Shown in pieces: positions 3,812 to 61,642 of a DNA stretch of 64,000 nucleotides; positions within the stretch are counted from its first letter, which is position 1; the number at the start of each line of letters is the position of its first letter. The notes under the pieces were generated by a model. The model searched no databases and was not told the DNA's origin. It worked only from the letters and a program-made list of their open reading frames with translations. The position numbers and the translations under genes were made by a program. Source of the stretch: a bacterium (GTDB lineage Bacteria > Hydrothermota > UBA3073 > JACQXS01 > JAQTXJ01); contig JAQUPX010000001.1 of assembly GCA_028716385.1 (NCBI GenBank), forward strand, positions 282,775 to 346,774, in the 5' to 3' direction.

Positions 3812-4426
3812 ATGAGAAAACTTTTTATACTTTTAATTTTTAGCGCGCAAATCGCATCCGCGGATTCTTCCTCTTTTTCTGTTGATTTCCCAATAACTAA
3901 TATCCTAATAACCAATAATGTGTGTGATTCTTTTTCTCCCATCGGACTTAAGCCAAGCAATCTCATACTGACAGATTTATATGGATGTAAGAGTAATTAT
4001 TTGTTCACGGCAGTAAACGATTCTCAAAAATCTGTTACCTCTGCCGAAGATAGAACGTGGGTCGTAACCGAGCCTTTCGGCGGATTTTTAGGTGGAGTTT
4101 TGGGTGGACTTGCAGGCGCTATAATTGTTGCCTTGGCAGTGCCGTATAGCTTAGACAGTAGTGATCCCACAGTAAGGAACGGATTTCTTTTTGGGTATGC
4201 GGCCGGATGTGGGCTTGGTATCTGGTCAGCAGGGAAATGGATAGAAAGAGAAAAAGGAAATTTGATATGGACAATTTTTGGTAGTATGGCAGGAGAATTC
4301 CTTGCTTATGCAAAACTTACTTATAACAATAATCATGATGATTACAGTACCGGTATTTATTTAGTCATACCTGTATTACCTATAATATCAGGAGTAATTG
4401 CTTATCGTATGAGTTTTAAAAAATGA
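3812..4426 (+). CDS. glycine-zipper membrane protein, tandem paralog 1 of 5
   Basis: 204 aa; N-terminal signal-like segment, IGLKPSxL motif, WVVTEPxGG, Gly-rich hydrophobic segments, GIWxxGKxIEREKG, ends YRMSFKK; stop overlaps next start (ATGA). Confidence 0.55.
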   Translation: MRKLFILLIFSAQIASADSSSFSVDFPITNILITNNVCDSFSPIGLKPSNLILTDLYGCKSNYLFTAVNDSQKSVTSAEDRTWVVTEPFGGFLGGVLGGLAGAIIVALAVPYSLDSSDPTVRNGFLFGYAAGCGLGIWSAGKWIEREKGNLIWTIFGSMAGEFLAYAKLTYNNNHDDYSTGIYLVIPVLPIISGVIAYRMSFKK

Positions 4427-5040
4427 AAAAACTTTTTATCGTCTTTGTAATTTCCGTCACAATCATATCCGCCGATTCCCCATCTTCTTCTTTTGATTCC
4501 CAATTACCTGATTACCACTTAATTACTACAAGTTACAATCAATTACCATCCGGTATCGGCTTAAAGCCCAGCGACTTAACGCTAACTGATGCTTACGAAT
4601 ACAATCGTGGCAAGGCATTCGCATCATTTGGGGGGGAAGGGTATTCTTACGACGAATCTAACGGTGATGAAGATAACTCGTGGAAAATAACCGAACCTTT
4701 GGGTGGCTTGGCAGGAGGATTAATAAGCGCGCTTTTAGTAGGCGGGGCAGTAGGACTTGCAACACGTTCCAGTGATGATTGGAGCGGATTGATTTTAGCG
4801 TACTATGGTGTATTTATAGTATATCCGATAGGCGTTGGAACCGGCATCTGGATGACAGGGAAATACAGGGAAAAAGAAAAAGGGAACTTGTTGTTATCAA
4901 TATTGGGCGCTGCCGTTGGAACGATTCCTGCCTTTTTCTACCCGCCGTTATTACTTGTAACCCCTATATTATCAGGATTAACCGTTTATCGATTGACCCT
5001 TGGAATAGGAAATCCAAATTGTTGTTTAGGTTTGAAGTAA
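4423..5040 (+). CDS. glycine-zipper membrane protein, tandem paralog 2 of 5
   Basis: 205 aa; shares IGLKPSDLTLTDAYEY, ITEPLGGLAGG, GIWMTGKYREKEKG, YRLTLG with neighbours. Confidence 0.55.
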   Translation: MKKLFIVFVISVTIISADSPSSSFDSQLPDYHLITTSYNQLPSGIGLKPSDLTLTDAYEYNRGKAFASFGGEGYSYDESNGDEDNSWKITEPLGGLAGGLISALLVGGAVGLATRSSDDWSGLILAYYGVFIVYPIGVGTGIWMTGKYREKEKGNLLLSILGAAVGTIPAFFYPPLLLVTPILSGLTVYRLTLGIGNPNCCLGLK

Positions 5041-9376: not shown

Positions 9377-9760
9377 ATGGAAAAGAAGATATTAATTGTG
9401 GATGATGATTTCCATCTTATTACTCTCCTGCGGTTCAATCTGGAGAAAGCAGGTTACTCTGTTTGGTCTGCAAAAGACGGCAGCCAGGCGTTGAACATAA
9501 TGAAAAAAGACAAAATGGACCTCATAATTGCCGATATGATGATGCCGGTGATGGACGGTTTGGAATTATGTCGACGGGTAAAAAGCGAACCTTTATGGAA
9601 ATCCTGTCCCGTAATAATGCTCACTGCCAGAGTTCAGCTTTCGGACAAGGAAAAAGGAAAAGAGGCGGGAGTTGATGATTATATTACAAAACCTTTTCAG
9701 ATGAAAGAATTGCTTGCTTCGGTAAAAAACAATCTGAAACTATATTCAGATAAAAAATGA
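9377..9760 (+). CDS. single-domain response regulator (CheY-like receiver)
   Basis: 127 aa; ILIVDDD...MDLIIADMMMP..DGLEL...PVIMLTA...KEAGVDDYITKPF matches the receiver-domain pattern (acidic pocket, phospho-acceptor Asp, conserved Thr and Lys positions). Confidence 0.85.
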   Translation: MEKKILIVDDDFHLITLLRFNLEKAGYSVWSAKDGSQALNIMKKDKMDLIIADMMMPVMDGLELCRRVKSEPLWKSCPVIMLTARVQLSDKEKGKEAGVDDYITKPFQMKELLASVKNNLKLYSDKK

Positions 9761-10137
9761 ACAAACAAAGAAGAGAAATAGTAATAGGGAAGCATACTTT
9801 CTATCTTGATAAAAGCAATATATTACGCATAACCGTTGTCGGGGAACCGGGAAACGAAACCGTAACCGCAATGAAAACACTACATGAGAAACTCGATGAC
9901 ATAGCTAAAGACAAGGTGAATTTCCTTATAGACCTTAACCGGGCAGGAAAGCCCTCTCCGGAAGTAAGAAATATGGAGAAGTTAATTTACCGGCATAAGA
10001 AAGTTAGAAAAATCGCTTTCTGCGGCGCGCATCCTGTTGCAAAAGTACTTGCAAATTTTACTATATCCGTCACAAAAAAGAAAGATATGCAGTTCTTTGA
10101 CACTGAAGAAAAAGCCCTTTCCTGGCTGAAAAAATAA
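9757..10137 (+). CDS. small STAS/SpoIIAA-like protein, tandem paralog 1 of 4 (fold assignment tentative)
   Basis: 126 aa; shares with the next three ORFs IGKHTxxLxxxNIL...VxG...KVxxLxDL...KPSxExR...KKVxKIAxxGxxPVAKV...KKxxxFFxTxExALxWLK; start overlaps receiver stop (ATGA). Confidence 0.5.
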   Translation: MNKQRREIVIGKHTFYLDKSNILRITVVGEPGNETVTAMKTLHEKLDDIAKDKVNFLIDLNRAGKPSPEVRNMEKLIYRHKKVRKIAFCGAHPVAKVLANFTISVTKKKDMQFFDTEEKALSWLKK

Positions 10138-10149
10138 TAAAAAATGAAC

Positions 10150-10214
10150 AAAGAAAAAAAGATGTAAAATTTTTCAATACGAAAGAATCGGCAATCGTAT
10201 GGTTACGGGAATAA
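10150..10214 (+). pseudogene. 3'-terminal remnant of a fifth STAS-like paralog (internally deleted copy)
   Basis: 10150-10214 is near-identical to 10941-11004 (the last ~21 codons of paralog 3, ...KKDVKFFNTKESAIVWL(R/K)E*); ATGAACAAA at 10144 mimics the paralog-1 start but is out of frame, giving M-N-K-E-K-K-M-stop. Confidence 0.55.
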
Positions 10215-10226
10215 CGCGTAAAGGAC

Positions 10227-10613
10227 GTGAAAATGAATAAAGAAGAAAGAGAAATATTAATAGGAAAGCATACCGTCTGCCTCGGTGAAGACAATATATT
10301 ATATATAACTATTGTCGGAGACATTGACGAAGAAAAAATAGAGATATTGTTTGAAACAATTAGTAAACTTCTGGAGATGGGAAAAGGAAAAGTAAGCGTA
10401 TTAGTAAATATTAGCAAAGCCAAGAAGCCTTCTGTAAAAACAAGAAACCATATCGCACAATTCCATACGAATAAAAAGGTCGGGCAGATTGCCATTTTTG
10501 GACTAACCCCGGTTGCAAAAGTAATGTCGGCTTTCGCCGTAGGAATTACTAAAAAAAGAAATATAAAATTCTTTGATACAAAAGAATCGGCTCTTGCCTG
10601 GCTAAACGAATAA
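10227..10613 (+). CDS. small STAS/SpoIIAA-like protein, tandem paralog 2 of 4
   Basis: 128 aa; same conserved motif set; AAGGA upstream. Confidence 0.5.
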   Translation: MKMNKEEREILIGKHTVCLGEDNILYITIVGDIDEEKIEILFETISKLLEMGKGKVSVLVNISKAKKPSVKTRNHIAQFHTNKKVGQIAIFGLTPVAKVMSAFAVGITKKRNIKFFDTKESALAWLNE

Positions 10614-10617
10614 TAAA

Positions 10618-11004
10618 ATGGAAAAAGGGAAAAAAGAGTTTTTTATAGGGGAGAACAGATTATACCTCGGGGAAGATAAAATACTTTATGCGGATTTTTC
10701 AGGGGAACTTACCGTGGATATAATAAATTCGTTATACGATTTTTTTAATCTCAATAAAACCAAAATGATGAACGAAGGAAAAGTAAAGATACTTATACAC
10801 CTTAAGAATCCAAAGAAATCTTCTCCTGAAGCCAGGAAATTAACATATACGTTGAGTAAAGATAAAAATATTGGCAAAGTCGCCCTCTTGGGAATTAACC
10901 CGGTTACAAAAGTAATCGCCTCTTTCTTTATGGGAAATTCAAGAAAAAAAGATGTAAAATTTTTCAATACAAAAGAATCGGCAATCGTATGGTTAAAGGA
11001 ATAA
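10618..11004 (+). CDS. small STAS/SpoIIAA-like protein, tandem paralog 3 of 4
   Basis: 128 aa; same conserved motif set. Confidence 0.5.
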   Translation: MEKGKKEFFIGENRLYLGEDKILYADFSGELTVDIINSLYDFFNLNKTKMMNEGKVKILIHLKNPKKSSPEARKLTYTLSKDKNIGKVALLGINPVTKVIASFFMGNSRKKDVKFFNTKESAIVWLKE

Positions 11005-11017
11005 TGCATACAGAGAT

Positions 11018-11410
11018 ATGAAAATGAAAAAACAAGAAAAAGAAATATGGGCAGGGCAAAATAGATTATGTTTCGGAGAAGACAAAATACTTTACGCAAC
11101 TCTTGTCGGGGACCTTTCTGCGGAAATAGTGAATACGTTATATGTATTTTTCGAACAAAATAAAAATGAAAATATGGTTGACGGGAAAGTAAGATTTTTT
11201 GTAGACCTTACTAATTCAGGGAAACCTTCTATGGAAGCAAGAAAATTGACTTATGCGCTGAGTGAAAGTAAAGACATCGGGAAATTTGCCATAATCGGAA
11301 TGAATCCGGTTGCAAGGGTAATAGCGGCTTTTTTTATGGGAAATTCAAGAAAGAAAGGTATGAAATTTTTCAACACAAGGGAGGAAGCGCTTGAATGGCT
11401 AAAGAAATAA
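11018..11410 (+). CDS. small STAS/SpoIIAA-like protein, tandem paralog 4 of 4
   Basis: 130 aa; same conserved motif set; 3' end overlaps the kinase start. Confidence 0.5.
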   Translation: MKMKKQEKEIWAGQNRLCFGEDKILYATLVGDLSAEIVNTLYVFFEQNKNENMVDGKVRFFVDLTNSGKPSMEARKLTYALSESKDIGKFAIIGMNPVARVIAAFFMGNSRKKGMKFFNTREEALEWLKK

Positions 11411-12747
11411 TACCGTCAGACAAATTCAAAGAAATTACCTATAACAAGGAAAACCCTTTGCGCGATGAAACAATTATTCGTCTTAATAAGATGATTGAAA
11501 TTGTTATGAACGTGGCAAAAGGAATTTACTCCGAACAGGTTCAACTCTCGGATAAAAACGATGAGATTGATGCGCTTGGGATAGGTATAAATATGATGAT
11601 TGACGATATTAAAAAAAACGTTGAAAGAATCAAAAAAGAAAAAATTAACCTCGATAAACAAGAAAAAAGAAGAACTATAGAACTTAAAGAAGAACGGAAT
11701 AAATTCCACGCTACAGCCGAAAGCATATCCGACGGTATACTCGTGATAGACTTCAAGGGGAATATTCTAATCGTTAATTCGGCATTTGAAAGGTTATTTG
11801 GCATCAAAAAAGAACAGGTAACGGGACGACACGTGCTTGATTGTCTGGAGGATGTAAAAATTTTAGACCTTATAACCCGAAAATTAACAACAGGGCATGA
11901 ATATTATACGGAAGAACTTATAATCACGGATAGGGTAACCAACACAGAAAAAATCTTAAACGGACGAATATCTTCCGTCTTCAACCAGGCCGGAAAAAAA
12001 TTGGGAGCCGTAATAGTTCTGAGGAATATCACAAAAGAAAAAGAAGCCGAGAGAATAAAAAATGAATTTGTATCAAACGTGTCTCACGAAATCAGGACGC
12101 CCCTGTCTTCCATAAAAGGTTTCGTTGATACTCTTCTTATGGTTAAAGTTTCCGAGTCCGAACGTAAAAAGTTTTTAAACATAATCAAACAGGAATCAAA
12201 CAGGTTGAACCAGCTTATTACTGATTTGCTTGACCTTTCCCGTATTGAATCCGGAAGGGTAGAGCTTAAATTTGAACCCGTTGACGTTTTTCAAAAGTTG
12301 GAAGCCGTAAAATCGGAAATTTTAGGTAAAATCTCACGGAAGAAACTTTCTTTTGAAATAAAAGTGCCGGCTTCTTTGCCGCTGATAAAAGCCGATAAAA
12401 ATGCTTTGTTCCAGATTCTTATTAATCTTGTTAGTAATGCAATTAAGTTTACGGAAAAAGAAGGAAAAATTTGCGTGAAAGCGGAACTGTGCAACAAGAA
12501 AGAATGTGTCAAATTTTCTGTCCGGGATACGGGGTATGGAATAGAAAAACAATACCTGACAAAAATATGGGAAAAATTCTACAGGATTGAAACTTCTTCG
12601 CATAAAATCCCCGGAACAGGACTCGGGTTACCTATTGTTAAAGATTTGGTAGAAAAGCATAACGGGAAAATATGGGTAAACAGTAAACCCGGAAAAGGCA
12701 GTGTTTTTTACTTTACCATACCGGTTTTTACCGAAAGGAAAAAATGA
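11395..12747 (+). CDS. cytoplasmic sensor histidine kinase (PAS + HisKA + HATPase_c)
   Basis: 450 aa; no transmembrane segment seen; PAS-like region (ATAESISDGILVIDFKGNILIVNSAFERLFG); H-box NEFVSNVSHEIRTPLSSIKGF; ATP-lid motifs (LINLVSNAIKFT, VRDTGYGI, GTGLGLPIV). Confidence 0.85.
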   Translation: MAKEIIPSDKFKEITYNKENPLRDETIIRLNKMIEIVMNVAKGIYSEQVQLSDKNDEIDALGIGINMMIDDIKKNVERIKKEKINLDKQEKRRTIELKEERNKFHATAESISDGILVIDFKGNILIVNSAFERLFGIKKEQVTGRHVLDCLEDVKILDLITRKLTTGHEYYTEELIITDRVTNTEKILNGRISSVFNQAGKKLGAVIVLRNITKEKEAERIKNEFVSNVSHEIRTPLSSIKGFVDTLLMVKVSESERKKFLNIIKQESNRLNQLITDLLDLSRIESGRVELKFEPVDVFQKLEAVKSEILGKISRKKLSFEIKVPASLPLIKADKNALFQILINLVSNAIKFTEKEGKICVKAELCNKKECVKFSVRDTGYGIEKQYLTKIWEKFYRIETSSHKIPGTGLGLPIVKDLVEKHNGKIWVNSKPGKGSVFYFTIPVFTERKK

Positions 12748-13130
12748 GCGATATAGATAAATTACAAAAAATACTTATAATAGACGATGAATACAACTTA
12801 TGCACGCTTCTGCGGTTTCATTTGCAGATGGAAGGATTCAAAGTGTTTACTGCGCATAATGCGGCAGATGGCGTAGAAGCGGCAAAAACGAAACTTCCCG
12901 ACCTTATCCTGCTTGACGTAAAAATGCCGGATACGGACGGCATACAAGTATGTAAAATCTTAAGAAGAAACCGTAAAACCAAGCATATCCCTATATTTAT
13001 GATTACGGGATTATCCCAGATGGGCATTATGGAAGATGCGTTCAAGGCAGGCGCGAACGATTATATCTCCAAACCTTTTGACGTGACTACAATCGTAGAG
13101 CTGGTTACCGAAAAATTTTCCAAACTCTAA
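12744..13130 (+). CDS. single-domain response regulator (CheY-like receiver)
   Basis: 128 aa; ILIIDDE...PDLILLDVKMPDTDG...IPIFMITG...AGANDYISKPF; start overlaps kinase stop. Confidence 0.85.
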   Translation: MSDIDKLQKILIIDDEYNLCTLLRFHLQMEGFKVFTAHNAADGVEAAKTKLPDLILLDVKMPDTDGIQVCKILRRNRKTKHIPIFMITGLSQMGIMEDAFKAGANDYISKPFDVTTIVELVTEKFSKL

Positions 13131-13544
13131 TCCGCTTCCCTGTCCTATTTTCCTAATAACTAATACCCTATTAACGGATTCTCCCGCACGGGGTGTGCCA
13201 ATTTTATCTTTTCTCTGTGCACTCTCTGTCTTCGGAGTTTACCCCGCATTTTGCGGGGTAGTTTTAATCTGTATTCTGTTTTTTGTTGTTTACACTATAA
13301 ATTTCTTTTCTCTGTGCTCTCTGTGGTTAGACTTTCGTGGCGATGTTCTTTTTTTCCTTGCAAAAACGAAACTATAGTATATTCTGAAAACTAACAATTA
13401 TAAGATACAAATAGAAAATAGTAACTGGTAGTCCCGCTAGCGGGATAGCAATCTCTAATGACTAACATCAAAGAGCTTGCTATAATTTAAGGAGTAATTG
13501 GTTGTAACTGAAAAAAAGAATAACCGTAACTAATAGGAGGAAAG

Positions 13545-15725
13545 ATGCGAAATGTTTTCAGGAGTGTTTTTGTCGGGATAATGCTTATCCCGTTTATTTT
13601 ATCCGGCGAACAAAAAATCGCCGCCCGGTCAGTAAGAATTCAGCAGGATAATGTTTTTGAAACAAAAGGCGGAACAAAAACGGGCGTTCCGTCAGAGATT
13701 AACTACCAGGGATGGCTTGGCGCTGCAGATACATCGGCGGTGACAGGAAAACTTAATATGGTATTTAAAATTTATACCGCATCAACAGGCGGGACATTAT
13801 TATGGACAGAGCAAGACAGCGTGCAGGTGAGCAAAGGGATATTCAACGTATTACTTGGCAGCGTAACGCCTATACCGGACAGTATTTTCAACAACACGTC
13901 TCTTTATCTTGAGACACAAGTTGACGCGGACGTTTTAGAGCCGAGGAAAAAACTTACAAGCGTCGGTTATGCAATAAAATCAAAACATTCGGACAATGCA
14001 ACTCGAGCGGACACCGCGACTTACGCAATCAACGCCAACGTTCAGTACGTGGATTCGGCGAGAGTAGCGGCTACGGCTTATGCCTTGACGGATACGACTG
14101 CTTTCAACGACAAATATGTGAGTGTATCCGGCGACACAATGACGGGGCCGTTTGTTGCTTCGGCGAATTCGGCCGATAATTTGGTTTCTTCAATCCAGGC
14201 AGGCGTAGGCAAAGCAGGGTATTTCGAGATAGCCAATATTACAAATGCAAATGACGTGGTATATAATTACACAACCGGCACGGGAAACGCCGGTTTATTC
14301 CGGATAAACAATGCCGTAAATTCGAACAATGCGGTATACGGGATGACGAATGGCGCCGGGCATGCGGTATATGGTTATACGAACGGCACGGGGAATGCGG
14401 TACGCGCGACTACAATCGGAGCCGGGGATGCGCTGTATAGTTATACGACCGGTACCGGGGGCGCGGGATATTTTAATATAAACAATGCTTCAAATGCGAA
14501 CAATGTAGTATATGGGACTACGAATGGCGACGGGGATGCAATATCCGGATATACGACCGGAGCCGGGCATGCGGTATACGGGCAGACAAATTCCAGCGGG
14601 GATGCTGTATACGGTTATACGAACGGCACGGGCAGGGCAGCGTTATTCCAGATAGGGAATGTTTCAAATGCAAGCGATGCTTTGTATACTTATACAAACG
14701 GCACGGGAAAAGCGGCGTATTTTGAGATAGGAAATGTCGCGAGTTCAAGTCCTGTGGTGCATGCGTATACAAACGGCACGGGAAACTGCGGGTATTTTTC
14801 GATAGCCAATGCTTCGAATTCAAACAACGCAGTCTATGCTTCTACGAGTGGAAACGGGCATGCGATACAGGGGTATATGGCAGGAACGGGCACCGCGGGG
14901 TATTTTTCGGTAAACAATGCCGCAAGCGCAGGCGAGGCAATAGCCGCAACTACAATCGGAACGGGCAGGGCGGGGTATTTTTCGATAAGCAATGCCACGA
15001 ATCCAAGTTCCGTAATATATGCGACTACAAATGGAAACGGAGTAGCAGGGCATTTCCAGGTAAGCAATGTTTCAAGTTCAGGCCCTGCGCTGTATGGGGT
15101 AACGAATGGCAGCGGGGAAGCCGTGTACGGGTCAGGGAGCGGAAGCGGGATTGCGGTACGCGGGAGCACAAACGGAACGGGTAGGGCAGGATTTTTCCAG
15201 ATAACAAATGTTTCAAATTCAAGCGATGTGTTGTATGGAACTACGGACGGAAGCGGGAACGTGGTGCATGGTTATACAAGCGGAACGGGCAGGGCGGGGT
15301 ATTTCCAGATAAACAATGTTTCAAATTCGTCAGATGTAATTTATTTAACGTGCAACGGGACGGGGAATTTCATAAATACGTCTAAAAGCGGTTGTTACCT
15401 TGACAAAGACGGTGTATGGCATACTCCAAGCAGTCGTGAACTCAAAGAAAACATAGAAGAACTCCGTGCGGATGAAGCGATGAGTGCGGTTGAAAAGTTG
15501 AATCCGGTTAAATTCAATTACAGGAAAGGTGGAGGAGAAAGCTATGTAGGGTTTATCGCTGAGGACGTGCCCGACCTGGTAGCAATGAAAGACAGGAAAT
15601 CTTTATCGCCGATGGACATAGTAGCGGCTTTGACGAAGGTAGTGCAGGAACAGCAGAAAAGCATACAGGCGCAGCAAAAAGAGATAAACGCATTAAGGGA
15701 AAAAGTAGACCGGCTAACAAAATAA
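13545..15725 (+). CDS. secreted fibre-like repeat protein with C-terminal intramolecular-chaperone (peptidase S74 / endosialidase-chaperone-like) domain
   Basis: 726 aa; AGGAGG upstream; signal-like N-terminus; about 20 copies of a ~21-aa unit (YTNGTGxAGYFxIxNxSNxxxVVY); C-terminal SSRELKENIEEL...LNPVKFNYRK...GFIAEDVPDLVA...coiled-coil tail fits the tail-fibre chaperone pattern SDxRLKxNI...PVxF...GFIAQEV..PxLV. Confidence 0.7.
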   Translation: MRNVFRSVFVGIMLIPFILSGEQKIAARSVRIQQDNVFETKGGTKTGVPSEINYQGWLGAADTSAVTGKLNMVFKIYTASTGGTLLWTEQDSVQVSKGIFNVLLGSVTPIPDSIFNNTSLYLETQVDADVLEPRKKLTSVGYAIKSKHSDNATRADTATYAINANVQYVDSARVAATAYALTDTTAFNDKYVSVSGDTMTGPFVASANSADNLVSSIQAGVGKAGYFEIANITNANDVVYNYTTGTGNAGLFRINNAVNSNNAVYGMTNGAGHAVYGYTNGTGNAVRATTIGAGDALYSYTTGTGGAGYFNINNASNANNVVYGTTNGDGDAISGYTTGAGHAVYGQTNSSGDAVYGYTNGTGRAALFQIGNVSNASDALYTYTNGTGKAAYFEIGNVASSSPVVHAYTNGTGNCGYFSIANASNSNNAVYASTSGNGHAIQGYMAGTGTAGYFSVNNAASAGEAIAATTIGTGRAGYFSISNATNPSSVIYATTNGNGVAGHFQVSNVSSSGPALYGVTNGSGEAVYGSGSGSGIAVRGSTNGTGRAGFFQITNVSNSSDVLYGTTDGSGNVVHGYTSGTGRAGYFQINNVSNSSDVIYLTCNGTGNFINTSKSGCYLDKDGVWHTPSSRELKENIEELRADEAMSAVEKLNPVKFNYRKGGGESYVGFIAEDVPDLVAMKDRKSLSPMDIVAALTKVVQEQQKSIQAQQKEINALREKVDRLTK

Positions 15726-17108: not shown

Positions 17109-18596
17109 TTACTTCACAACTACTATTTTCGATGTGCAGTTTTGTCCGCAAGCGGACAGTCTTGCGAGGTATACGCCGGAGGTAAACCCTGTCGGCGTCC
17201 ATTCTAATGTATATTCACCGGGAACCTTATTTGTGTTTAAAAGAGTTTTAACCAATTCGCCTGCAGTGTTATATATCCTTAAACATACATCGGAATTTTT
17301 TGGTATGGAGTATCTGAAAAGTAATTTGTGGTTAGAGAGTTGTGCATATAATCTAGGCGTTTCCCGAGAATAAACTTTTTCCTGAACACCGGCTATACAT
17401 CCTCCATCCAGGACTTTCAAAATTCCTGTTCCTCCGATTACCACTTCCAATTGCCCGTCCCCGTCTACGTCTCCGATTGAAGGGTCGCTGTCTCCGGCAG
17501 AACTATTGCCAAATTCCCATAGAAGAGTTCCGTCATTATTGAGTCCGCGTATTATTGTATCGTTAGAGGCAAATACTATTTCGGGTTTATCGTCACTGTC
17601 CAAATCGCCAATCGCAGGGCATGACCATATGTGACTTCCCGTTGCATAACTCCAGAGCACTGAGCCATCTTCACCGTTGAGAGCGTAAAAGTTGAAATCA
17701 TCGGAGCCAAATACTATTTCAGGTTTAGTGTCGTTATCCAAATCTGCAATCGCAGGGGAAGAGCGTACGGAACCTCCTGTCGTCGTGTAGCTCCAAAGTA
17801 AAGAACCGTCTTCTCCGTTGAGAGCGTAGAAATCGAATGAGCCGACAACTATCTCGAGTTTAGTATCGTTATCCAAATCTGCAATCGCCGGGGAAGCGCT
17901 AACTCCTATTGGATAACTCCAGATAAGCGAACCATCTTCACCATTAAGAGCATATAATTTATTGTCGCCAAGAACTACCTCAAGTTTAGTATCGTTATCC
18001 AAATCCGCAATTGCAGGCGAAGACCATATGTAACTTCCCGTTGCATAACTCCAGAGTACTGAGCCGTCTTCACCGTTGAAAGCGTAGAACGTATAATCCA
18101 GGGAGCCAACAGCTATTTCAGGTTTACTATCGTTATCCAAATCCGCAATCGCGGGGGAAGACATTACCCGATTTCCTGTCTTATAACTCCAGAGCAGGGA
18201 GCCGTCTTCAGTATTGAGGGCATAAAGTTGGCTGTCATAGGAGCAGACAACCACCTCGAGTTTAGTGTCCCCGTCTAAATCCCCAAGTGCAGGGCAAGAG
18301 CATATTTTACCCGACGTTGTATAGCTCCATATTACTGAACCGTTTTCTCCATTGAAATTATATATTTTATTGTCTATGTCATTACCGGAAATTATTTCAG
18401 GGATGTTATCATTATTTATGTCTACAATTGCAAATTTAGCGAATCCCTCGTTAGGGGTTTGCCATTTGATTCTCATAGAATCGGAAGTTAAGCATCCTTT
18501 GAGTTCAGGTTGAAAACCAGTATTTTGCAGGTCATGATGGAATTTCAGCCATTCTCCGGGCAAGGTCAAAAGGCAAATAAGAAATATATTCAACAT
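17109..18596 (-). CDS. propeller-repeat (PQQ-like / FG-GAP-like) protein with T9SS C-terminal tail; inverted paralog of 29316-30824
   Basis: 495 aa; repeating IADLDNDTKxEVVxGSxDxxLYALNGEDGSxLWSYxTG units; C-terminal sorting tail; N- and C-terminal regions about 80-90 percent identical at nucleotide level to 29316-30824 on the other strand. Confidence 0.65.
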   Translation of the reverse strand: MLNIFLICLLTLPGEWLKFHHDLQNTGFQPELKGCLTSDSMRIKWQTPNEGFAKFAIVDINNDNIPEIISGNDIDNKIYNFNGENGSVIWSYTTSGKICSCPALGDLDGDTKLEVVVCSYDSQLYALNTEDGSLLWSYKTGNRVMSSPAIADLDNDSKPEIAVGSLDYTFYAFNGEDGSVLWSYATGSYIWSSPAIADLDNDTKLEVVLGDNKLYALNGEDGSLIWSYPIGVSASPAIADLDNDTKLEIVVGSFDFYALNGEDGSLLWSYTTTGGSVRSSPAIADLDNDTKPEIVFGSDDFNFYALNGEDGSVLWSYATGSHIWSCPAIGDLDSDDKPEIVFASNDTIIRGLNNDGTLLWEFGNSSAGDSDPSIGDVDGDGQLEVVIGGTGILKVLDGGCIAGVQEKVYSRETPRLYAQLSNHKLLFRYSIPKNSDVCLRIYNTAGELVKTLLNTNKVPGEYTLEWTPTGFTSGVYLARLSACGQNCTSKIVVVK

Positions 18597-22314: not shown

Positions 22315-24177
22315 TTAGGTCTTCTCACTCAGTTGATTAAGCATTTTTTCCTGTGAAATTTTTACGGCCGCCATTTTTTCCCTTAATGCTGAATGTAGAT
22401 GGCTCCATGTTTCAAAATCACACTCTTCTCTAAGTTCACATTCATTACATCTAAAACATCTTGGGAGTTTTAGCCCGCTAAAAAAGTTGTATTCAATATT
22501 TTTAATAATTTTTTCTACTAATTGTTGCGAATAGAAAATCTCAAGTTTTTCTTTTGCCATTTTAGTATTATAATTCTTAAGCTTTTTTAAAACCAAATAA
22601 TCTCTTATCGCTGAAAAATAAGTAATTTCTTCCTCGTTGTTTTTTATATTTCCGGACGATAGTATATTAATAAATTTTTGCAATTCATATATCGCTTTTT
22701 TATATGAACCGGTAACTAAATGCAAAAACGAAAGTAGTAAAACAGGATTTATTCTGCTCCATTGAGAATCCCATTTACGCAAAGGGAGCCATGTAAAAGG
22801 GAGGATATTATTTATTTTATAGGGAGTCTTATATACGCTGTTGTTAACCAGTTCTTTGATTTCTTTGAATTCATCAATTTTTCTTTTATCTAAATCTATA
22901 AATAAATTATTTTTTTCTATTTTTTCTTTATGTAATTCTAACTCCTTCCATGAAGCTCTTCTGGAGTTAGTCCCCGGTACAATAACTTGATAACTTGGAA
23001 ATCCCAAAAAAGATACATCTCTTATAAATATAGGTCCTTTTGTTGCTCTATGTAATATATTACACATACGTTGATAGTGTAGTTTATTGTTAAATTTGTT
23101 ATTTGTGTTTGCCGACAAAGTACTATTATAAGATGGTTTTCCAAAGAAAAAACTGTTTGGATAAGCACCGTCATTCGTTTTTAGCAAGTTAAAAAAGTTG
23201 TTAGACCATCCGCCATTATTAATTTTTTGTTCGAATAATAAATCTTTTAAGTTTACTTTCGTTCCGCTTTTGTAGTCCAAAATATGTCTACCTTGAAATG
23301 TTTCTGTAATGGCGCGGGAAATAGCCTCATCTATATTAGGATGCGACCCAAAATTTACATGGTAGCTGCCTTTCCTTTTATCGTGCGCTATGACAGCAAC
23401 AACAGGCAACGCCATATTTAGAGAACAATCTTTAATTGAAATATGGAAATTACTATTTTTTTCTATTTCCTCAATCATAATCTTTAAGTGTGGGGAACGA
23501 GATATACAACTTTTGTTTAATTCCGGGGGAGTTAATTGCTTGTGGTAAATAACATCCATACAGTGCCTTTCACTTACTTCGCTCATCCCTTGCACCAATG
23601 CTTCGTAAATATTATTCCCGGCGCACATCCCCGTAGAACCATAATGATACCTTATCATCTCCAATGGCAAAAAAACAATTTTTCCGCTAATCACATCCGC
23701 AAATGGAATGCATAGCAATTTTCCTTCGTATGAAAAAAAATCCAGCCATTTTTCGGCATCCCCTTTCTGTCTGTCACACGGAGCAAAATTTCTTAACAAA
23801 TTCTTGTCGACAGACTTAACAAATTGGCGCGGTGTTAAAAATATTTCATCCGGGGAATAAATAAAATCAGAAATCTTATGCAGTGTTTTATAGTTTAATA
23901 TAAAACTATTATGATTTGCGGTGTTGAATTGATTTTGTATTCTTTCCATTAGTTCCGCATAAGCGCTGGCAAGCGCCGCTTCTTTTGACATCCCCTTCCC
24001 GTTTGAACCAATAAAACTATCATTAAAACTAATGCGTACCGAATATAAAGAATCTCCATTCTTATACCACCTGTCTTCATTAATCAAAACTCCTATTTTG
24101 TAAAAAATGTTTCTTATACGAGTTATAGTTTCTATGGGTTTTACATCTTTATATAAAACTGTCTGAACCTTTTCCAT
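22315..24177 (-). CDS. ycaO: YcaO-domain protein, full-length E. coli YcaO-type
   Basis: 620 aa; SVRISFNDSFIGSNGKGMSKEAALASAYAELMERIQNQF matches the YcaO ATP-binding core (GKG...AxxSAxxExxER); further blocks YHYGSTGMCAGNNIYEALVQGMSEVSERH and FGSHPNIDEAISRAITETFQGR line up with E. coli YcaO along its length. Confidence 0.85.
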   Translation of the reverse strand: MEKVQTVLYKDVKPIETITRIRNIFYKIGVLINEDRWYKNGDSLYSVRISFNDSFIGSNGKGMSKEAALASAYAELMERIQNQFNTANHNSFILNYKTLHKISDFIYSPDEIFLTPRQFVKSVDKNLLRNFAPCDRQKGDAEKWLDFFSYEGKLLCIPFADVISGKIVFLPLEMIRYHYGSTGMCAGNNIYEALVQGMSEVSERHCMDVIYHKQLTPPELNKSCISRSPHLKIMIEEIEKNSNFHISIKDCSLNMALPVVAVIAHDKRKGSYHVNFGSHPNIDEAISRAITETFQGRHILDYKSGTKVNLKDLLFEQKINNGGWSNNFFNLLKTNDGAYPNSFFFGKPSYNSTLSANTNNKFNNKLHYQRMCNILHRATKGPIFIRDVSFLGFPSYQVIVPGTNSRRASWKELELHKEKIEKNNLFIDLDKRKIDEFKEIKELVNNSVYKTPYKINNILPFTWLPLRKWDSQWSRINPVLLLSFLHLVTGSYKKAIYELQKFINILSSGNIKNNEEEITYFSAIRDYLVLKKLKNYNTKMAKEKLEIFYSQQLVEKIIKNIEYNFFSGLKLPRCFRCNECELREECDFETWSHLHSALREKMAAVKISQEKMLNQLSEKT

Positions 24178-55288: not shown

Positions 55289-58200
55289 TCATTTCATCAA
55301 TATGAGTTTCTTTGTCTCTTTGTATTCACCAGCTTTAAACTTCGCAAAGTATATACCCGTCGGATAGTTCCTTGATTCAAGAGTTTCCTTGTAACAACCC
55401 GGTACTTTCTCTCCATCTACCAATGTCTTTATGCATCGTCCTGTAAGGTCGTAAAGTTTTAAAGAAACTTTGCTAGTTTTCGGTAGTGAATATTGAATCG
55501 TTGTTCTGTCCCTAAATGGATTAGGATAATTTTGATAGAGCTTGAATACAAGCGGTTTAGACATAGTTCCTTGCGATCCGCCGCTTCCAAGTTCAGCTCT
55601 GCAAATCTTTCCTTCGCCCCCATCTGTCGCATTATCAGGACCTATTCCTTGAGTTACCAAAACATTTCCCGTGAAAGTCTCTACATTTCTTATAAGTGCG
55701 ATTCTCCCGCCTGCCGATCCACCACCGTCCGCTTGTGTATTATTTGCTCCGTCATTTCCTTTTGCTTCTATGTTCCCTTCACCTTTTAATGAATCACAGC
55801 TTATAAAAATCGAGCCACCGCTTCCGGCACCGCCTGCATATCCACTTGCATATTTATATCCAGCTTCTCCATTTACTGAAACTACTCCGTCAATTGTTAT
55901 CACATTTGCTGAAAGTTTTAATCTTCCTCCACCGGAACCTCCCGGGGCTACTGTATAGTTATTTCCAGCGCCTCCGCCGGAACCAAGAGATGTAGGATTA
56001 AGAGAATCTGCTTCACCATAAGCAACTCCACCGGATATTCCGCTTTCTCCGTTTCCCCCTGTGTTTCCGTAACCTGCTCCGCCGGCACCCGCTCCATTCA
56101 ATCCGTTTGTGCCTTTCCCGGTTCCGTTTGATGTTAAATAGCCTTTTTTATCTGCACTTATCACTGCTCCCGAACCGACAGTTATCTCATTTGCTATAAT
56201 AGAAGCATTACCTAATACGGAATCTCCGGAATCAAGCTGGAATTTTACATTGCTGAAACTTGCTCCGTTAACAAACGAAAGCCTGTCATGTGAGCCTATT
56301 GTCGTATTTACCGGAGAAACAAGCAATTCTACGTTTCCGTTAGATTGAGCTACTTTTATTATTCCGCTCTGTCCGTCTTGTGCCTTATCCGGATAAATAG
56401 AGCCTGCCCCAACGCCACCGCTTGCCAATAACTTTCCACTAAAAGATGAATTCCTGTAATCAATTTGAAGCCTTCCCGCGCTTCCGCCTCCACCCTGTGC
56501 TGTGCTTCTATATGCGCCATTTCCTCCGTTTGTTTCTGCAATTCCGCTCCCTGCAATTGAATCGCAAGTTATCCAAATTGAACCTGCTCCACCGCCACCG
56601 CCGGCATAAGACGAGCCGCCTGCTTCTCCATCCGTTCCATTAGATTCTATTTTCCCTGAAAGCGTTAATGTCGCTGTTGAGAGTTTAATTAAACCGCCTC
56701 CTGCTCCACCCCAAGCCGAATAAGAGCTTCCGTTTCCGCCACCACAGCCAAGGTAAGCCATTGGAGAAAGAGTATCAGGATAAGCGGCTCCGCCTGATAT
56801 TTCTGTTTCTCCTAAACCGCCTTGCCCACAGCACGCTCCACCGCCTGCGCCTGCACCATTTGTGCCATTTGTGCCTTTGCCCGGTCCACTGGCTTTCGGA
56901 TTTCCCTTGCCTGTAGAGCTTAAAGTTCCTAATAGTTGCATTGTTTGAGCTTCCACGTCTATGATACCTGTAGTAGAATCAGTGCCATTAAATGCAACGC
57001 TATTCATCGTAGCGCCTGAATTTATCTTAAATAAGTTTATGTTATAATGTCTACCTGAAACGAGTCTTGTGCTGTCCGTTGTCCATACCCAATCAGTCCC
57101 GCCGTGATTTGTTCCACCAAGTCCTACGCTTAACTGGAAGTGACGCACTCCACCTGCACCTGAATTATAAACATAGTTTGGATTAGTGCGTAAGTTCTGT
57201 GTAGCCCCATTCCCAAGATCAAGCAAATATATGCCGTATCCCGAAGGCACATCGGACGGTAAAATGTTAAGTGTTATATTTTCGTTTGATTTATCCGTAT
57301 TGACTTCAAAGTTCCATACCATTGTGGAATCCGTAAGGTCAACCGTTTCTCTTACATCCTGACAGAACTTATCTCCTAAAGGATGATTCCATTCGGAATG
57401 AGGAAAATAGAGGTGTACATAATTGGAAGGGGGAGTAGAATATTTTGGAATGTCATATCCTTCGTCACAACTGTCAGAAGCTTCTCCAAGCACTCCTGCG
57501 TAATTTGAAATATCTTCGGCAAAGTTGGAAGTTGCTTTGACCTGGAGTTTCCAGTCGAGAGGTAGAATAGTTTTTATCGGCATAAAAGTACTATATCCGG
57601 AAACGGTACCTGCTATGGTAGCGGAATCGCTGTTCTCCCAGTAATTATTCTGAGCGATAATCGTATCTCCGGATGTGTTTACAAAATTCCATAACCCATT
57701 AGCATAAATGTTATTATTCCCGGGATTGTATTCCGCATTGGAATAAGTAGCATTACCAAAATTAATTCCTGTTCCTGTATTGGTAAATACTCCAATTGAG
57801 TCATTCGCAACTATTGTATTTTCCCTGCCGAGTAGGGAGGAATTATATGCTTTTATACCTATTCTGTTATGATGAATCGTACTTTTCCATACTTCCCCGT
57901 AAGGTGAATTATCATAGAGAATTCCGGCTTGTTTACAATTCTCTATTTCAAAACCACGTATTGTAATGTACTGTTTATTGCTTACATTAAATCCATAATC
58001 CCTTGTATTGTCTCCGGTAATGACAACTCTTTCTCCTTCGGCAGCAAGATAAACAATTCTTCCGTCGTCGGGATCTCCTGCGTTTTGGGGAGTTACGGTC
58101 TCGTGATAAGTGCCACCCTTTACGATAACGGCTTCACCGGGTTGAAGAGTGTTAGCGGCTTTTTGAATAGTTGCCCATGGTGATGTTTCAGTCCCCGAAT

Positions 58201-61200
58201 TCCCATCGTTACCGCCATTGCAATTCACGTATTTTACGGATTTGTATGTGATATAAGGCACAGGCGTACTCCATGGACCAATATTGCCAGACCTATCTAT
58301 TGCACAAACAGCATAATAATACATCCAGTCGACTGGCGCCCACTCATACCATGTCCTTTGAATAGGAGAAAATGTTGTAGCTAGATTAAACGTGTTTGGC
58401 GAGTTACTCGCACTCACAAAATAGCCGCCTAAATACGGTTCATGGTTAGATTCGCCAGTACCTGCCTCTGTAAATGGAGTAGCATCCCACACACAACGAA
58501 TAATGCCACCTCTGCCTCTAAAGAAAGACACGCCTGTTACCTGAGGAGGCTTCAAGATATTATTAGCACCGGTTTTTACAAAACTACCAGAAGGAGGCGG
58601 TGTTTCACTAAAAGAAGCAGGCTCTGAAGGTATTTCATTGGTGCCAACAGCATTAACCGCTCTAATTGCATAATAATAATCCCGTCCAACCTCACCGGTA
58701 AAGTCCTGGTAATTCAGCCCCGATGTGTTGCCAATATATTCATAATCTCCGTTACTGCTTACTTCCGAACGATAAATATAATATTCTAGGGCATAGGGAA
58801 CGGAGTTCCAACTTATAAAACCACTTTTTTCACCATGGTCTATGGGATAAGGAATACGTGACATTACGCTAGGTGCAATAGGCCTATTAGTAATAGGCAT
58901 TAATCCCCATGGTCTGGATTTGGCAGGCCCAATCCAGAATTGTGCTCGGTTTTCCCCCCCGTCATCCCATATGACTTTTACTTTGTACCAATATGGAATG
59001 TTAAAACAAACAGTATTATCCGTATACCCATAGAAATTAAAGCCGTTGTTTGTCGCATTAATTACACTGCCCGGAACCTCTTCAAACGGACCTTCCTCGC
59101 ATATACTGCGATATACAATATACTTAGTTATCTTATCGCTTACACCGCTTGTCCATGTTTCTTCTCCGGTAATCCAGCCTATGCTGACACCTCCTTCATA
59201 CCCTTCTGCCCAAATATTACCTAACAATGGAGCATAATACCTGCCAAGGAGTGTACCTTCTTCAACGTCTATGTTTGGACGTCTTCCTCCGGAATATGCC
59301 ATCCAGCCTTTTTCGCCGTTACTGCATACACAATAAAGATCATTATTCTTTAAGAAATATTCATGTTCCCATTCTGCATATGTTTTGTAAATTGCATCTG
59401 ATGTGCCAACGTAGAATGTTCCTTTCTCGCCGCCGCCGATACTTCCATATTTAACATCAGTGAACCATGTAGGATACATTATCCTGCCGTCAAAATTAAT
59501 ATCTACTGAAGTCGAATTCCACGCAGAGCCGGAACTTGCCCCAACCCCTCCCGTGGAAATTCCCATTATTGCGTCGTCTATAGCTCCGCCTGATCCTGTA
59601 ATTCCAAAATTTGCATGTCTGACATCTGCCCAGTTGACAGGAGCGTTTACCCAATCACTTTGTCCCCAACCCCAGGGATACGGATTATGTCCCGGTTCAT
59701 CATTCCTGAATGTATTAAAAGATGCAGCAGTTGTCTCATTCCATTTGGTCCAAGTTATGCCTCCATTCTTTGTCTGCGCCACACACCCTCTGTTGTCCGT
59801 TGTTATCCAAACGTTATTGCCAAGCAGATTGTTTTTGTCTACCCATATACCTCTTACACAGTCGGAAAAATGCTCTGGTGTGTTTGGGACGGGTTTTGTA
59901 GTTATATTTGCCTTCCAAGTTTGTCCAAAATCTACTGATTTTAATACATATCCTCCGGATGCTCCTATGTATCCAACCTGGTCATTTGCAAAATCCACAC
60001 AATAGAAAGCAAGGTTATTATTGTCTGCACCCACTATATTATCCGAATATAAAAAAGATTGCCCTCCTCCTGTTTTTTCAAGTTTTGCTATAATTCCTCG
60101 CACACCTGTATAAGTTATATCCGTGCTTACTTTTACATTTGTCCCTACGACATATGCATAGTCCTGCGTCTCGCATACTCCATAAAAATCCCAATCATTT
60201 CCACAACCCGTTACCGGGGTCCACTTTGAATATGCATCTTTTTTTAAGATTAATCCTTTATCTCCAACTGCATAGTTTTCACTAACTGCTCTTATAATTT
60301 GGTTATTGGAACCAAAATCCGGCTGTTGATTAAACCAACCGGAAGTAAATAAAGGGTCAAGTTTGTCGTCAAAAATAAATAAGCCGAAAGTATTACTATA
60401 AGAACCAGGTAGTGCTATTTCTAAATCACCATCGTTATCTATATCCCCTATTGCAAGCTCATGAATAGTAGTACCTATGGATAAAGTGTACGCGGTTTCC
60501 CATAAAAAACTTCCGTCATAATTAAGGCAAAGAAGACAATATTTTAACGCAACAAACGGATCTAGAGAAATAATTATTTCTGGGTTAGGAGTTAGGTCAT
60601 TTATATTGGCAACCGTTATAGAAAGACTTGTTGTAGCGATGCCGGTTAAAGCATAAGTCCATTTGAAGCTACCATCATGATATAAAGAATAAATTTGAGT
60701 CCCAGACGCAAAAATTATTTCATCATAAGGATTGTTGTCTATATTCGCTATTGCCGGGGAAGAAATAATTCTGTTTCCTGTTGTATAACTCCATCTGCAA
60801 GAACCATTTGTGTTTAACAGATATACTTTGTTATCATCCGAACCGGCTACTATTTCCAAAGTGGAGTTATTATTATCTATATCCGTTATTGCCGGGGAAA
60901 ACCTTACTTTGTCTCCTGTTGCATAATTCCATCTGCAAGAACCATTTGCATTTAATACGTATACATTGTTGTCATAAGAGCCGACCACTATTTCTAAAGC
61001 AGTGTTATTATTATCTATATCCGCTATTGCCGGGGAAGATTCTACGTCGCCTCCTGTTGCATAAGTCCATCTAAAAGAACCATTTGCATTTAATACATAT
61101 ACATTGTTATCATCAGAGCCGAATACTATTTCTAAAGGACCGTTATTATTATCTATATCCGTTATTGCCGGGGAAGATTCTATTTTATCTCCTGTTGGAG

Positions 61201-61642
61201 TCGAATAAGACCATAAACAATTGCCATCATGGTCAAGGGCATAAATTTTGCCATCCCAACTTCCAAAAACTATCTCAAGATCACCATCTCCGTTTATGTC
61301 TCCTACTGCCGGGGCAGAGGATACACCCTCCCATGGACTGGTGGGTGCATAATTCCAAAGGTCACTGCCATTATGGTCTATCGCATATACCCTTCCTTCA
61401 AAATTTACCATAGATTGCGCATTGTAAGTTCCAAGTATTGTTTCTAAATATCCATCCCCATTAATATCCGCAAGAACTCCTCCCGATTTAGCCGTGAGCG
61501 TATTTAAACGAGCAGTTTTAAATATCGGTGCAGTACTCATTTTCCCTGTTCCAATATTCTGGAAATTTGTATTACGTAAATCATGCCCATGCTTAGGCCA
61601 TGCCGAAAGACTCATTACTGCTAAAAGATAAACATACCACAT
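55289..61642 (-). CDS. giant multi-domain surface protein (propeller repeats, beta-helix, Gly-rich repeats) with T9SS C-terminal tail
   Basis: 2117 aa; AAGGAGGT 5 nt upstream; N-terminal IDNNNxxLEIVxGSDDNxVYVLNxNGS repeats; central pectate-lyase-like block; Gly-rich GGxGxxG segments; C-terminal LKLYDLTGRCIKTL...GIYFAKFKAGEYKETKKLILMK. Confidence 0.7.
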   Translation of the reverse strand: MWYVYLLAVMSLSAWPKHGHDLRNTNFQNIGTGKMSTAPIFKTARLNTLTAKSGGVLADINGDGYLETILGTYNAQSMVNFEGRVYAIDHNGSDLWNYAPTSPWEGVSSAPAVGDINGDGDLEIVFGSWDGKIYALDHDGNCLWSYSTPTGDKIESSPAITDIDNNNGPLEIVFGSDDNNVYVLNANGSFRWTYATGGDVESSPAIADIDNNNTALEIVVGSYDNNVYVLNANGSCRWNYATGDKVRFSPAITDIDNNNSTLEIVAGSDDNKVYLLNTNGSCRWSYTTGNRIISSPAIANIDNNPYDEIIFASGTQIYSLYHDGSFKWTYALTGIATTSLSITVANINDLTPNPEIIISLDPFVALKYCLLCLNYDGSFLWETAYTLSIGTTIHELAIGDIDNDGDLEIALPGSYSNTFGLFIFDDKLDPLFTSGWFNQQPDFGSNNQIIRAVSENYAVGDKGLILKKDAYSKWTPVTGCGNDWDFYGVCETQDYAYVVGTNVKVSTDITYTGVRGIIAKLEKTGGGQSFLYSDNIVGADNNNLAFYCVDFANDQVGYIGASGGYVLKSVDFGQTWKANITTKPVPNTPEHFSDCVRGIWVDKNNLLGNNVWITTDNRGCVAQTKNGGITWTKWNETTAASFNTFRNDEPGHNPYPWGWGQSDWVNAPVNWADVRHANFGITGSGGAIDDAIMGISTGGVGASSGSAWNSTSVDINFDGRIMYPTWFTDVKYGSIGGGEKGTFYVGTSDAIYKTYAEWEHEYFLKNNDLYCVCSNGEKGWMAYSGGRRPNIDVEEGTLLGRYYAPLLGNIWAEGYEGGVSIGWITGEETWTSGVSDKITKYIVYRSICEEGPFEEVPGSVINATNNGFNFYGYTDNTVCFNIPYWYKVKVIWDDGGENRAQFWIGPAKSRPWGLMPITNRPIAPSVMSRIPYPIDHGEKSGFISWNSVPYALEYYIYRSEVSSNGDYEYIGNTSGLNYQDFTGEVGRDYYYAIRAVNAVGTNEIPSEPASFSETPPPSGSFVKTGANNILKPPQVTGVSFFRGRGGIIRCVWDATPFTEAGTGESNHEPYLGGYFVSASNSPNTFNLATTFSPIQRTWYEWAPVDWMYYYAVCAIDRSGNIGPWSTPVPYITYKSVKYVNCNGGNDGNSGTETSPWATIQKAANTLQPGEAVIVKGGTYHETVTPQNAGDPDDGRIVYLAAEGERVVITGDNTRDYGFNVSNKQYITIRGFEIENCKQAGILYDNSPYGEVWKSTIHHNRIGIKAYNSSLLGRENTIVANDSIGVFTNTGTGINFGNATYSNAEYNPGNNNIYANGLWNFVNTSGDTIIAQNNYWENSDSATIAGTVSGYSTFMPIKTILPLDWKLQVKATSNFAEDISNYAGVLGEASDSCDEGYDIPKYSTPPSNYVHLYFPHSEWNHPLGDKFCQDVRETVDLTDSTMVWNFEVNTDKSNENITLNILPSDVPSGYGIYLLDLGNGATQNLRTNPNYVYNSGAGGVRHFQLSVGLGGTNHGGTDWVWTTDSTRLVSGRHYNINLFKINSGATMNSVAFNGTDSTTGIIDVEAQTMQLLGTLSSTGKGNPKASGPGKGTNGTNGAGAGGGACCGQGGLGETEISGGAAYPDTLSPMAYLGCGGGNGSSYSAWGGAGGGLIKLSTATLTLSGKIESNGTDGEAGGSSYAGGGGGAGSIWITCDSIAGSGIAETNGGNGAYRSTAQGGGGSAGRLQIDYRNSSFSGKLLASGGVGAGSIYPDKAQDGQSGIIKVAQSNGNVELLVSPVNTTIGSHDRLSFVNGASFSNVKFQLDSGDSVLGNASIIANEITVGSGAVISADKKGYLTSNGTGKGTNGLNGAGAGGAGYGNTGGNGESGISGGVAYGEADSLNPTSLGSGGGAGNNYTVAPGGSGGGRLKLSANVITIDGVVSVNGEAGYKYASGYAGGAGSGGSIFISCDSLKGEGNIEAKGNDGANNTQADGGGSAGGRIALIRNVETFTGNVLVTQGIGPDNATDGGEGKICRAELGSGGSQGTMSKPLVFKLYQNYPNPFRDRTTIQYSLPKTSKVSLKLYDLTGRCIKTLVDGEKVPGCYKETLESRNYPTGIYFAKFKAGEYKETKKLILMK

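Follow-up and report, generated by a model that had tools for sequence, protein, structure and literature searches.

It is well established that tandem gene families evolve by birth and death and in concert, and slippage or illegitimate recombination classically leaves a junction at a short direct repeat. Deletions in lacI between short direct repeats were reportedly described by Albertini and co-workers in 1982. In Neisseria pilS, silent partial cassettes serve as gene-conversion donors, and an operon with several STAS paralogs is reminiscent of the stressosome with its RsbR paralogues. The Pfam family PF11964 is the former DUF3478, with the PDB entry 2q3l. The structural-genomics entries of the DUF7793/PF11964 family were found to be labelled 'uncharacterized', and a literature search on DUF3478, DUF7793, PF11964 and PF25056, with full texts included, returned nothing on function.

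The window analysed here, i.e. the whole stretch of 64,000 nucleotides, was found to contain a tandem array of four DUF7793/SpoIIAA-like genes (p1 to p4). The segment at 10144-10214, between p1 and p2, is probably a non-functional remnant of a fifth gene of the p3 type that formerly stood there. As a kind of feature it is already well known, namely an ordinary pseudogene remnant, here from a tandem family with changing membership.

Results

Organization of the operon

The relatives compared were L033 (a metagenome-assembled genome, MAG, GCA_041649255.1), L003 (MAG STC_131), L034 (an ENA contig) and a JGI contig. The paralogs were assigned to five types: type A1 contained p1 and P0052; type A2 contained p2, L033 gene 1 and P0068; type B contained p3, P0002, P0003 and P0004; type C contained L033 gene 3, L003 gene 1 and L034 gene 3; and type D contained p4, L033 gene 4 (97%) and L003 gene 2 (86%). 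The operon of the window was found to contain the following features.

9377-13130, forward strand: operon, tightly packed, with a response regulator (RR), four paralogs, a histidine kinase (HK) and a second response regulator
9377-9760, forward strand: response regulator with a receiver domain only, operon gene 1
9757-10137, forward strand: paralog 1 (p1, type A1), 126 aa, DUF7793/SpoIIAA-like; orthologue P0052 (66%)
10233-10613, forward strand: paralog 2 (p2, type A2), 126 aa from the conserved ATG; orthologues L033 gene 1 (61%) and P0068
10618-11004, forward strand: paralog 3 (p3, type B), 128 aa, putative intact sister of the remnant
11024-11410, forward strand: paralog 4 (p4, type D), 128 aa from the conserved ATG; 97% to L033 gene 4 and 86% to L003 gene 2
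11395-12747, forward strand: PAS-HisKA-HATPase_c histidine kinase, 85% identical to the L003 kinase
12744-13130, forward strand: second receiver-only response regulator, last operon gene
13239-13261: terminator-like hairpin after the operon

The start of p1 was found to overlap the stop codon of the upstream response regulator (ATGA), and its end was found to read CTG AAA AAA TAA at 10137, with a second TAA at 10138-10140. An in-frame GTG was present upstream of p2 at 10227, the ATG at 10233 being the start that is kept in the homologues. The p4 gene overlapped the start of the histidine kinase, in which a HAMP match stayed under the Pfam cut-off (18.4 against 25 bits). The gap between p1 and p2 measured 89 nt to the GTG at 10227 and 95 nt to the ATG at 10233, and this gap alone was long, the remaining junctions of the operon and those in the L033, L003 and L034 arrays being overlaps or gaps of 4-19 nt.

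All four intact paralogs scored above the Pfam gathering cut-offs, with 34.6-43.2 bits for PF25056 (DUF7793; cut-off 26 bits) and 29.1-43.5 bits for PF11964 (SpoIIAA-like; cut-off 25 bits), and a tblastn search found no further copies of the paralog family in the window. The AlphaFold2 model of p3 (pLDDT 85.9) was found to contain an alternating strand-helix fold, and its best Foldseek matches were 2q3l (DUF3478), 1thn_B and 1h4z (SpoIIAA) and 6jhk (RsbS), with probability 1.00 and TM scores of 0.60-0.70. The 'STAS-like' label given in the initial annotation is therefore backed both by the Pfam scores and by the fold match of the p3 model. A nearly invariant serine was found in the family (S69 of p3, at about 10822-10824), placed as Lys-x-Ser in the motif GKPS just before the predicted helix 70-80, and its position recalls that of the serine phosphorylated in SpoIIAA/RsbV (Ser58 in SpoIIAA). 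No serine kinase of the SpoIIAB/RsbW type and no PP2C phosphatase was found in the operon or in the neighbours scanned.

Outside the operon, the downstream gene at 13545-15725 (forward strand) was found to encode a protein of 726 aa with many short Gly/Thr/Asn/Ala-rich repeats (NGTG.A-like) and a C-terminal Peptidase_S74 domain ('chaperone of endosialidase'; E = 1.2e-8). Domains of this family process themselves and are familiar above all from phage tail spikes. On the reverse strand, a YcaO cyclodehydratase-domain protein was found at 22315-24177 (E = 4e-52), an FG-GAP/beta-propeller protein of 2,117 aa at 55289-61642, which carries the Por_Secre_tail sorting domain of type IX secretion, and a second FG-GAP/PQQ-like propeller protein at 17109-18596. 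From the Por_Secre_tail domain, type IX secretion may be suspected in this lineage. No tRNA genes and no Rfam families at the gathering threshold were found in the whole 64-kb window (1-64000).

Structure of the remnant

The sequence of the gap between p1 and p2 was found to read TAAAAA-ATGAACAAAGAAAAAAAGATGTAAAATTTTTCAATACGAAAGAATCGGCAATCGTATGGTTACGGGAATAA-CGCGTAAAGGACGTGAAA and to contain the following parts.

10144-10214, forward strand: whole remnant of a B-type DUF7793/SpoIIAA-like gene, start to stop codon, 71 nt against 387 nt in the intact gene
10144-10167, forward strand: 5' piece and short frame, ATG AAC AAA GAA AAA AAG ATG TAA, i.e. MNKEKKM and stop
10151-10162, forward strand: junction zone AAGAAAAAAAGA, assignable to the 5' or the 3' parent
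10152-10214, forward strand: 3' piece (tail), last 20 codons (RKKDVKFFNTKESAIVWLRE) and the stop codon at 10212-10214
10215-10232, forward strand: 18-nt spacer from the remnant stop to the p2 ATG, resembling the 19-nt spacer after p3 (11005-11023)

The start-like sequence that the initial annotation had placed in this spacer was present, although its ATG had to be corrected to 10144 (10144-10146), a position 6 nt past the p1 stop. The same annotation had held that the 3' piece was out of frame with this ATG and that translation would stop after seven codons, and both points stood: the frame of the ATG reads MNKEKKM and ends at the TAA at 10165-10167, and the tail starts at a position equal to 0 modulo 3 while the ATG lies at 1 modulo 3. 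No ATG, GTG or TTG start was found in the frame of the tail. With 71 nt against 387, an ATG frame of seven codons and a tail in another frame, the remnant cannot yield a full protein. The AAGGA in the spacer at 10215-10232 was judged by eye to be Shine-Dalgarno-like. The frame of the tail was also found to be open backwards into the 3' end of p1 (10119-10214; FLAEKIIKNEQRKKDVKFFNTKESAIVWLRE), and this open stretch is probably due to chance.

The 5' piece had been likened to the start of p1. The likeness itself was found, the 16-mer ATAAAAAATGAACAAA being present exactly twice in the window, at the p1 start (9750-9765) and at the remnant (10137), but the start context is family-wide and not specific to p1. 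The 5' piece matched nearly every start of the family at 13-14 of 18 positions, and the A-rich context AAAATGAA.AAA was common to nearly all of them. An origin of the 5' piece from p1 was not favoured, the exact 16-mer being outweighed by the family-wide start context and by the equal closeness of the piece to most starts.

Similarity to paralog 3

The stretch 10151-10223 was found to match 10941-11013, i.e. the 3' end of p3 and 9 nt past its stop, with 92% identity (67/73 nt). The last 63 nt of the remnant contained 60 nucleotides identical to p3 against 36, 46 and 43 of the 63 for p1, p2 and p4, respectively, and the closest intact pair, p3 and p4, reached only 73% across the same stretch. 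A tblastn search with p3 residues 108-128 matched 10149-10211 with 90% identity (E = 4e-8), and the near-identity of the tail to the p3 end thus held as first described, the length being 20 codons and a stop. Elsewhere in the window, unrelated sequence matched the 63-mer at no more than 36/63, and 200 shuffles gave at most 38/63. The matching part was found to include the non-repetitive TTTTTCAATACGAAAGAATCGGCAATCGTATGGTTA, so the objection that the similarity might be limited to A-rich sequence failed on formal alignment.

Over 66 nt, the tail of the remnant was found to share 61 nucleotides with p3, 55 with the B gene of L034 and 47 with that of L033, and the non-B genes shared 21-50. The tail encodes KKDVKFFNTKESAIVWLRE, which fits the C-terminal signature of the B type, KKDVKFF(N/S)TKESAI(V/E)WL, the motif KKDVKFF(N/S)TKESAI within it being specific to this type. 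The tail was accordingly found to fall within the B-type orthologue group (p3, P0002, P0003 and P0004), and on these comparisons it is assigned as the 3' end of a B-type gene.

The remnant and p3 were found to share derived states against the B orthologues of L034 and L033, namely GAT for GAC and GAA-TAA for GAG-TAA, followed by a third one, a G as the last base of the penultimate Lys/Arg codon. After the split, two non-synonymous positions changed in the remnant (AAG to CGG) and one synonymous site changed in p3 (ACG to ACA). The junction between A1 and the remnant resembled that between A2 and p3, the homology reaching both flanks. The shared derived bases suggest that the remnant and p3 split, or were homogenised by gene conversion, within the lineage. 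The B genes are most conserved at their 3' end (p3 and the L034 orthologue shared 56/63 there and 79% over the whole gene), and this slow evolution accounts for part of the near-identity between the remnant and p3, so that the sister relationship rests on only 3-4 sites. The two are tentatively regarded as sisters within the lineage, by duplication or gene conversion. In the simplest history, the B gene at position 2 would have been copied with short flanks to position 4, and one of the two redundant B copies would then have been lost.

Arrays of related genomes

The arrays of the window and of the relatives were found to be ordered as follows.

Window: RR - A1 - (remnant) - A2 - B - D - HK - RR
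JGI 3300075153 contig (2,983 nt): RR (960-1343) - A1 P0052 (1340-1726) - B P0003 (1730-2116) - A2 P0068 (2135-2518) - fourth gene
JGI 3300075153, 2523-2912: the fourth gene, 129 aa, after which the contig ends; absent from all hit lists
L033: RR - A2 - B - C - D - HK - RR
L034: RR - B - C
L003: RR - C - D - HK

The JGI contig, the synteny of which was read from called-gene coordinates and protein sequences only, was found to contain an intact B gene of 128 aa (P0003, 69%) placed 3 nt after the A1 gene P0052 (66% to p1). The distance from the B stop to the A2 start was 18 nt, and the remnant stop and the p2 ATG were likewise separated by 18 nt (10214 to 10233). The overlap of 4 nt between the response regulator and A1 was identical in the JGI contig and in the window. 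The only other genome that bears an A1 gene thus contained an intact B gene where the window contained the remnant. The idea of an internally deleted extra copy gained from this contig, with its B-type gene at the same position and the same downstream gap, and the view that the remnant occupies the position of an intact gene of a relative is largely supported by the gene order. The intact five-copy array that had been sought in related strains was not found among the relatives.

No room for a remnant was found in the relatives, their gaps being at most 19 nt, and no second genome with the remnant was found among the genomes and metagenomes scanned. A metagenome scan with an alignment of p1 and P0052 gave no matches, and a scan with the B-, C- and D-type genes gave only distant relatives (30-37% identity). 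When the histidine kinase was used to scan genomes, a single close relative came up, its sequence divided between the contigs L003 and L004, and all further matches were distant. The exact p1 and p3 proteins were found only on contigs identical to the window, and there was accordingly no strain variation to compare.

The intact B gene of the relative, with its 18-nt downstream gap, and the correct placement of a start codon with family context 6 nt after the p1 stop speak against a partial copy that was never a full gene, in which the 3' end of p3 and its spacer would have been pasted in by template switching or as a short gene-conversion tract. Such an event would suit the observations that only the 3' 73 nt are demonstrably p3-like, that the 5' piece is not diagnostic and that similar spacers follow the remnant and p3. 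It is considered improbable, and the ancestral ACG kept by the remnant where p3 has ACA argues against a very recent copy of the present p3.

Probable origin of the deletion

Measured against the intact gene of 387 nt, the remnant was found to lack 316 nt, and this length (3n+1) explains the frame shift between its two pieces. A simulated deletion of 316 nt in p3 reproduced the remnant at 66 of 71 positions. With p3 as a stand-in, the retention of nt 1 to 7-10 and of nt 324-327 to 387 gave one and the same 71-mer at each choice of end points, these end points of the deletion being ambiguous over AAG. The p3 gene was found to carry AAAAAAGA at nt 13 and nt 328, and the presence of this repeat near both ends marks the junction zone 10151-10162 as a microhomology, the length of which lies between 3-4 nt as a minimum and about 12 nt as a maximum.

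A fifth DUF7793/SpoIIAA-like gene, of the B type, would once have stood between p1 and p2, and a single deletion would have closed at a short direct repeat, either AAG at least or an A-run such as AAAAAAGA, by replication slippage or by microhomology-mediated illegitimate recombination.

Homologous crossing-over between paralogs was rejected as a cause of the scar, the junction repeat being at most 12 nt and both ends lying within one gene model. We infer that the scar arose by slippage or illegitimate recombination and not by paralog crossing-over.

Being so short and A-rich, the 5' piece cannot be assigned to a gene type, which leaves room for a deletion across more than one gene, with the start taken from an A2-like MNKE gene and the tail from another B gene in an ancestor of at least six genes. 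The first four codons of the remnant (MNKE) were indeed those of p2 (MNKEERE), the 5' piece matched the A-type starts at 14/18, and the arrays vary widely in the group. However, the MNKEKK reading was found to fit the N-termini of the B type (MNKAKRE, MEKEKRE and MEKGKKE) as well as any, the B gene of the JGI contig directly follows A1 with a 3-nt gap, and an extra hypothetical gene would be needed; a deletion of this extent is considered improbable.

Function of the remnant

No promoter- or terminator-like site was found in the gap between p1 and p2, the RNA folding of the remnant gap was no better than that of shuffles (z = -0.78), and no Rfam match was found for the gap. An RNA element, a promoter and a terminator were ruled out as candidates by these scans. 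The 20 codons retained correspond to the last strand (113-116) and the last helix (119-127) of the fold in the p3 model. The remnant, as we infer, does nothing now except leave the only long intergenic space of the operon.

A remnant kept for a function is very unlikely on sequence grounds. It could act as an upstream ORF of seven codons that couples p1 to p2. It could also be read by slippage on the A7 run, giving a peptide of 23 aa (MNKEKKDVKFFNTKESAIVWLRE), which might mimic the C-terminal strand and helix of a B-type protein, or a C-terminally extended p1. As a further variant, it could be a silent partial cassette that donates or exchanges sequence with the 3' end of p3. With a single additional A, the A7 run would bring the ATG into the frame of the tail, this frame is open into p1, the tail's only amino-acid change is conservative (K to R), and the derived bases common to the remnant and p3 are compatible with gene conversion; if the frame of the tail was translated, the product would contain DVKFFNTKESAIVWLRE. 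Against all of these variants, the frame of the tail contains no canonical start, RNA structure, promoter and terminator were missing from the scans, the tail covers no more than a strand and a helix of a five-layer fold, no second genome was found with the element, and with three substitutions a selection test is powerless.

An assembly artefact, in which a mis-join in the repeated array would mimic an internal deletion, is extremely unlikely: short-read assemblers may be confused by tandem paralogs and the source is a metagenome-assembled genome, but two Logan assemblies from two sequencing runs were 100% identical to the window across the region, the region was also present on a 953-kb contig (named as the longest for the protein-database match of p3), the junction repeat of at most 12 nt is under any assembly k-mer, and the tail differs from p3 at three bases, which argues for a separate locus and not for p3 reused.

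Turnover of the array

The arrays were found to contain A1-b-A2-B-D, A1-B-A2-x, A2-B-C-D, B-C and C-D, respectively, and no two of the five related genomes were alike. The initial annotation had called the array actively recombining. On the evolutionary scale this is supported by the five differing arrays, by a chimera in another organism and by the shared derived bases, but no current polymorphism was found, the two run-level Logan assemblies being identical to the window.

The chimera was found in a different organism from the same sample (L039, 74-577; Logan SRR22315506_235205; P0058) and joins type A2 to type D. Its 5' part was 77% identical to p2 (10239-10534) and its 3' part was 74% identical to 11174-11448, a stretch made up of p4 and about 40 nt from the start of the kinase gene. 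Of the kinase no more was left than a remnant of its N-terminus, to which the chimera is fused. By its sequence, the chimera arose independently, through recombination and decay in an array of the same kind.

In a distant relative (L040, 3733-4229; JGI Ga0120401_1008132), a DUF7793 copy was found to be broken over three frames (residues 2-31, 50-111 and 104-127). Downstream of it lie an intact copy (4256-4630) and a PAS kinase. The 3' part of the broken copy was annotated as fused to the next copy (P0006, 210 aa). The broken copy was found on 7 contigs from several samples.

Tandem DUF7793 genes, one to three in number, were also found directly upstream of related PAS kinases in distant taxa, namely a Thermoplasmata archaeon MAG and Prolixibacteraceae MAGs, at the following loci.

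L005, 5104-5896: tandem DUF7793 locus
L009, 4453-5940: tandem DUF7793 locus
L011, 4885-5937: tandem DUF7793 locus
L013, 5561-5920: tandem DUF7793 locus

These loci suggest that the DUF7793 arrays are a conserved kinase-accessory module with variable copy number.

Discussion

Taken alone, the remnant matters little, being one dead fragment in an uncultured bacterium. It would explain the sole long non-coding gap of the operon, in which no small gene or RNA need be sought, and it would date a recent change in an array that differs in every related genome examined. The STAS-like DUF7793 genes would then be fast-turnover accessories of a conserved PAS histidine kinase. The link between DUF7793 and PAS kinases across distant taxa is the more interesting lead, pointing to a candidate widespread module.

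When compared with the partner-switching systems of SpoIIAA/RsbV, the operon was found to differ in its partners, the expected ones being absent and a PAS histidine kinase and two receiver-only regulators being present instead. The remnant resembles pseudogene remnants made by slippage or illegitimate recombination: both limits of the deletion fall within a short repeat (from AAG to as much as AAGAAAAAAAGA), one copy of this repeat was kept, a frameshift is present and only the ends of the gene survive. No difference in kind was found from such remnants, the tandem intact copy and the orthologue of a relative allowing a reconstruction here.

The array as a whole resembles tandem families under birth-and-death and concerted evolution in its varying copy number and order, followed by the L039 chimera and the frameshifted copy of L040, and it differs from them in that no within-population variation was seen here. 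With the silent cassettes of Neisseria pilS, the remnant shares the state of a promoterless truncated copy near an intact paralog, with a highly similar segment. It differs from them in being a single remnant of 63 nt from the most conserved and not the variable part of the gene; no repeats or recombination signals were seen here, and the evidence of exchange consists of the 3-4 shared sites.
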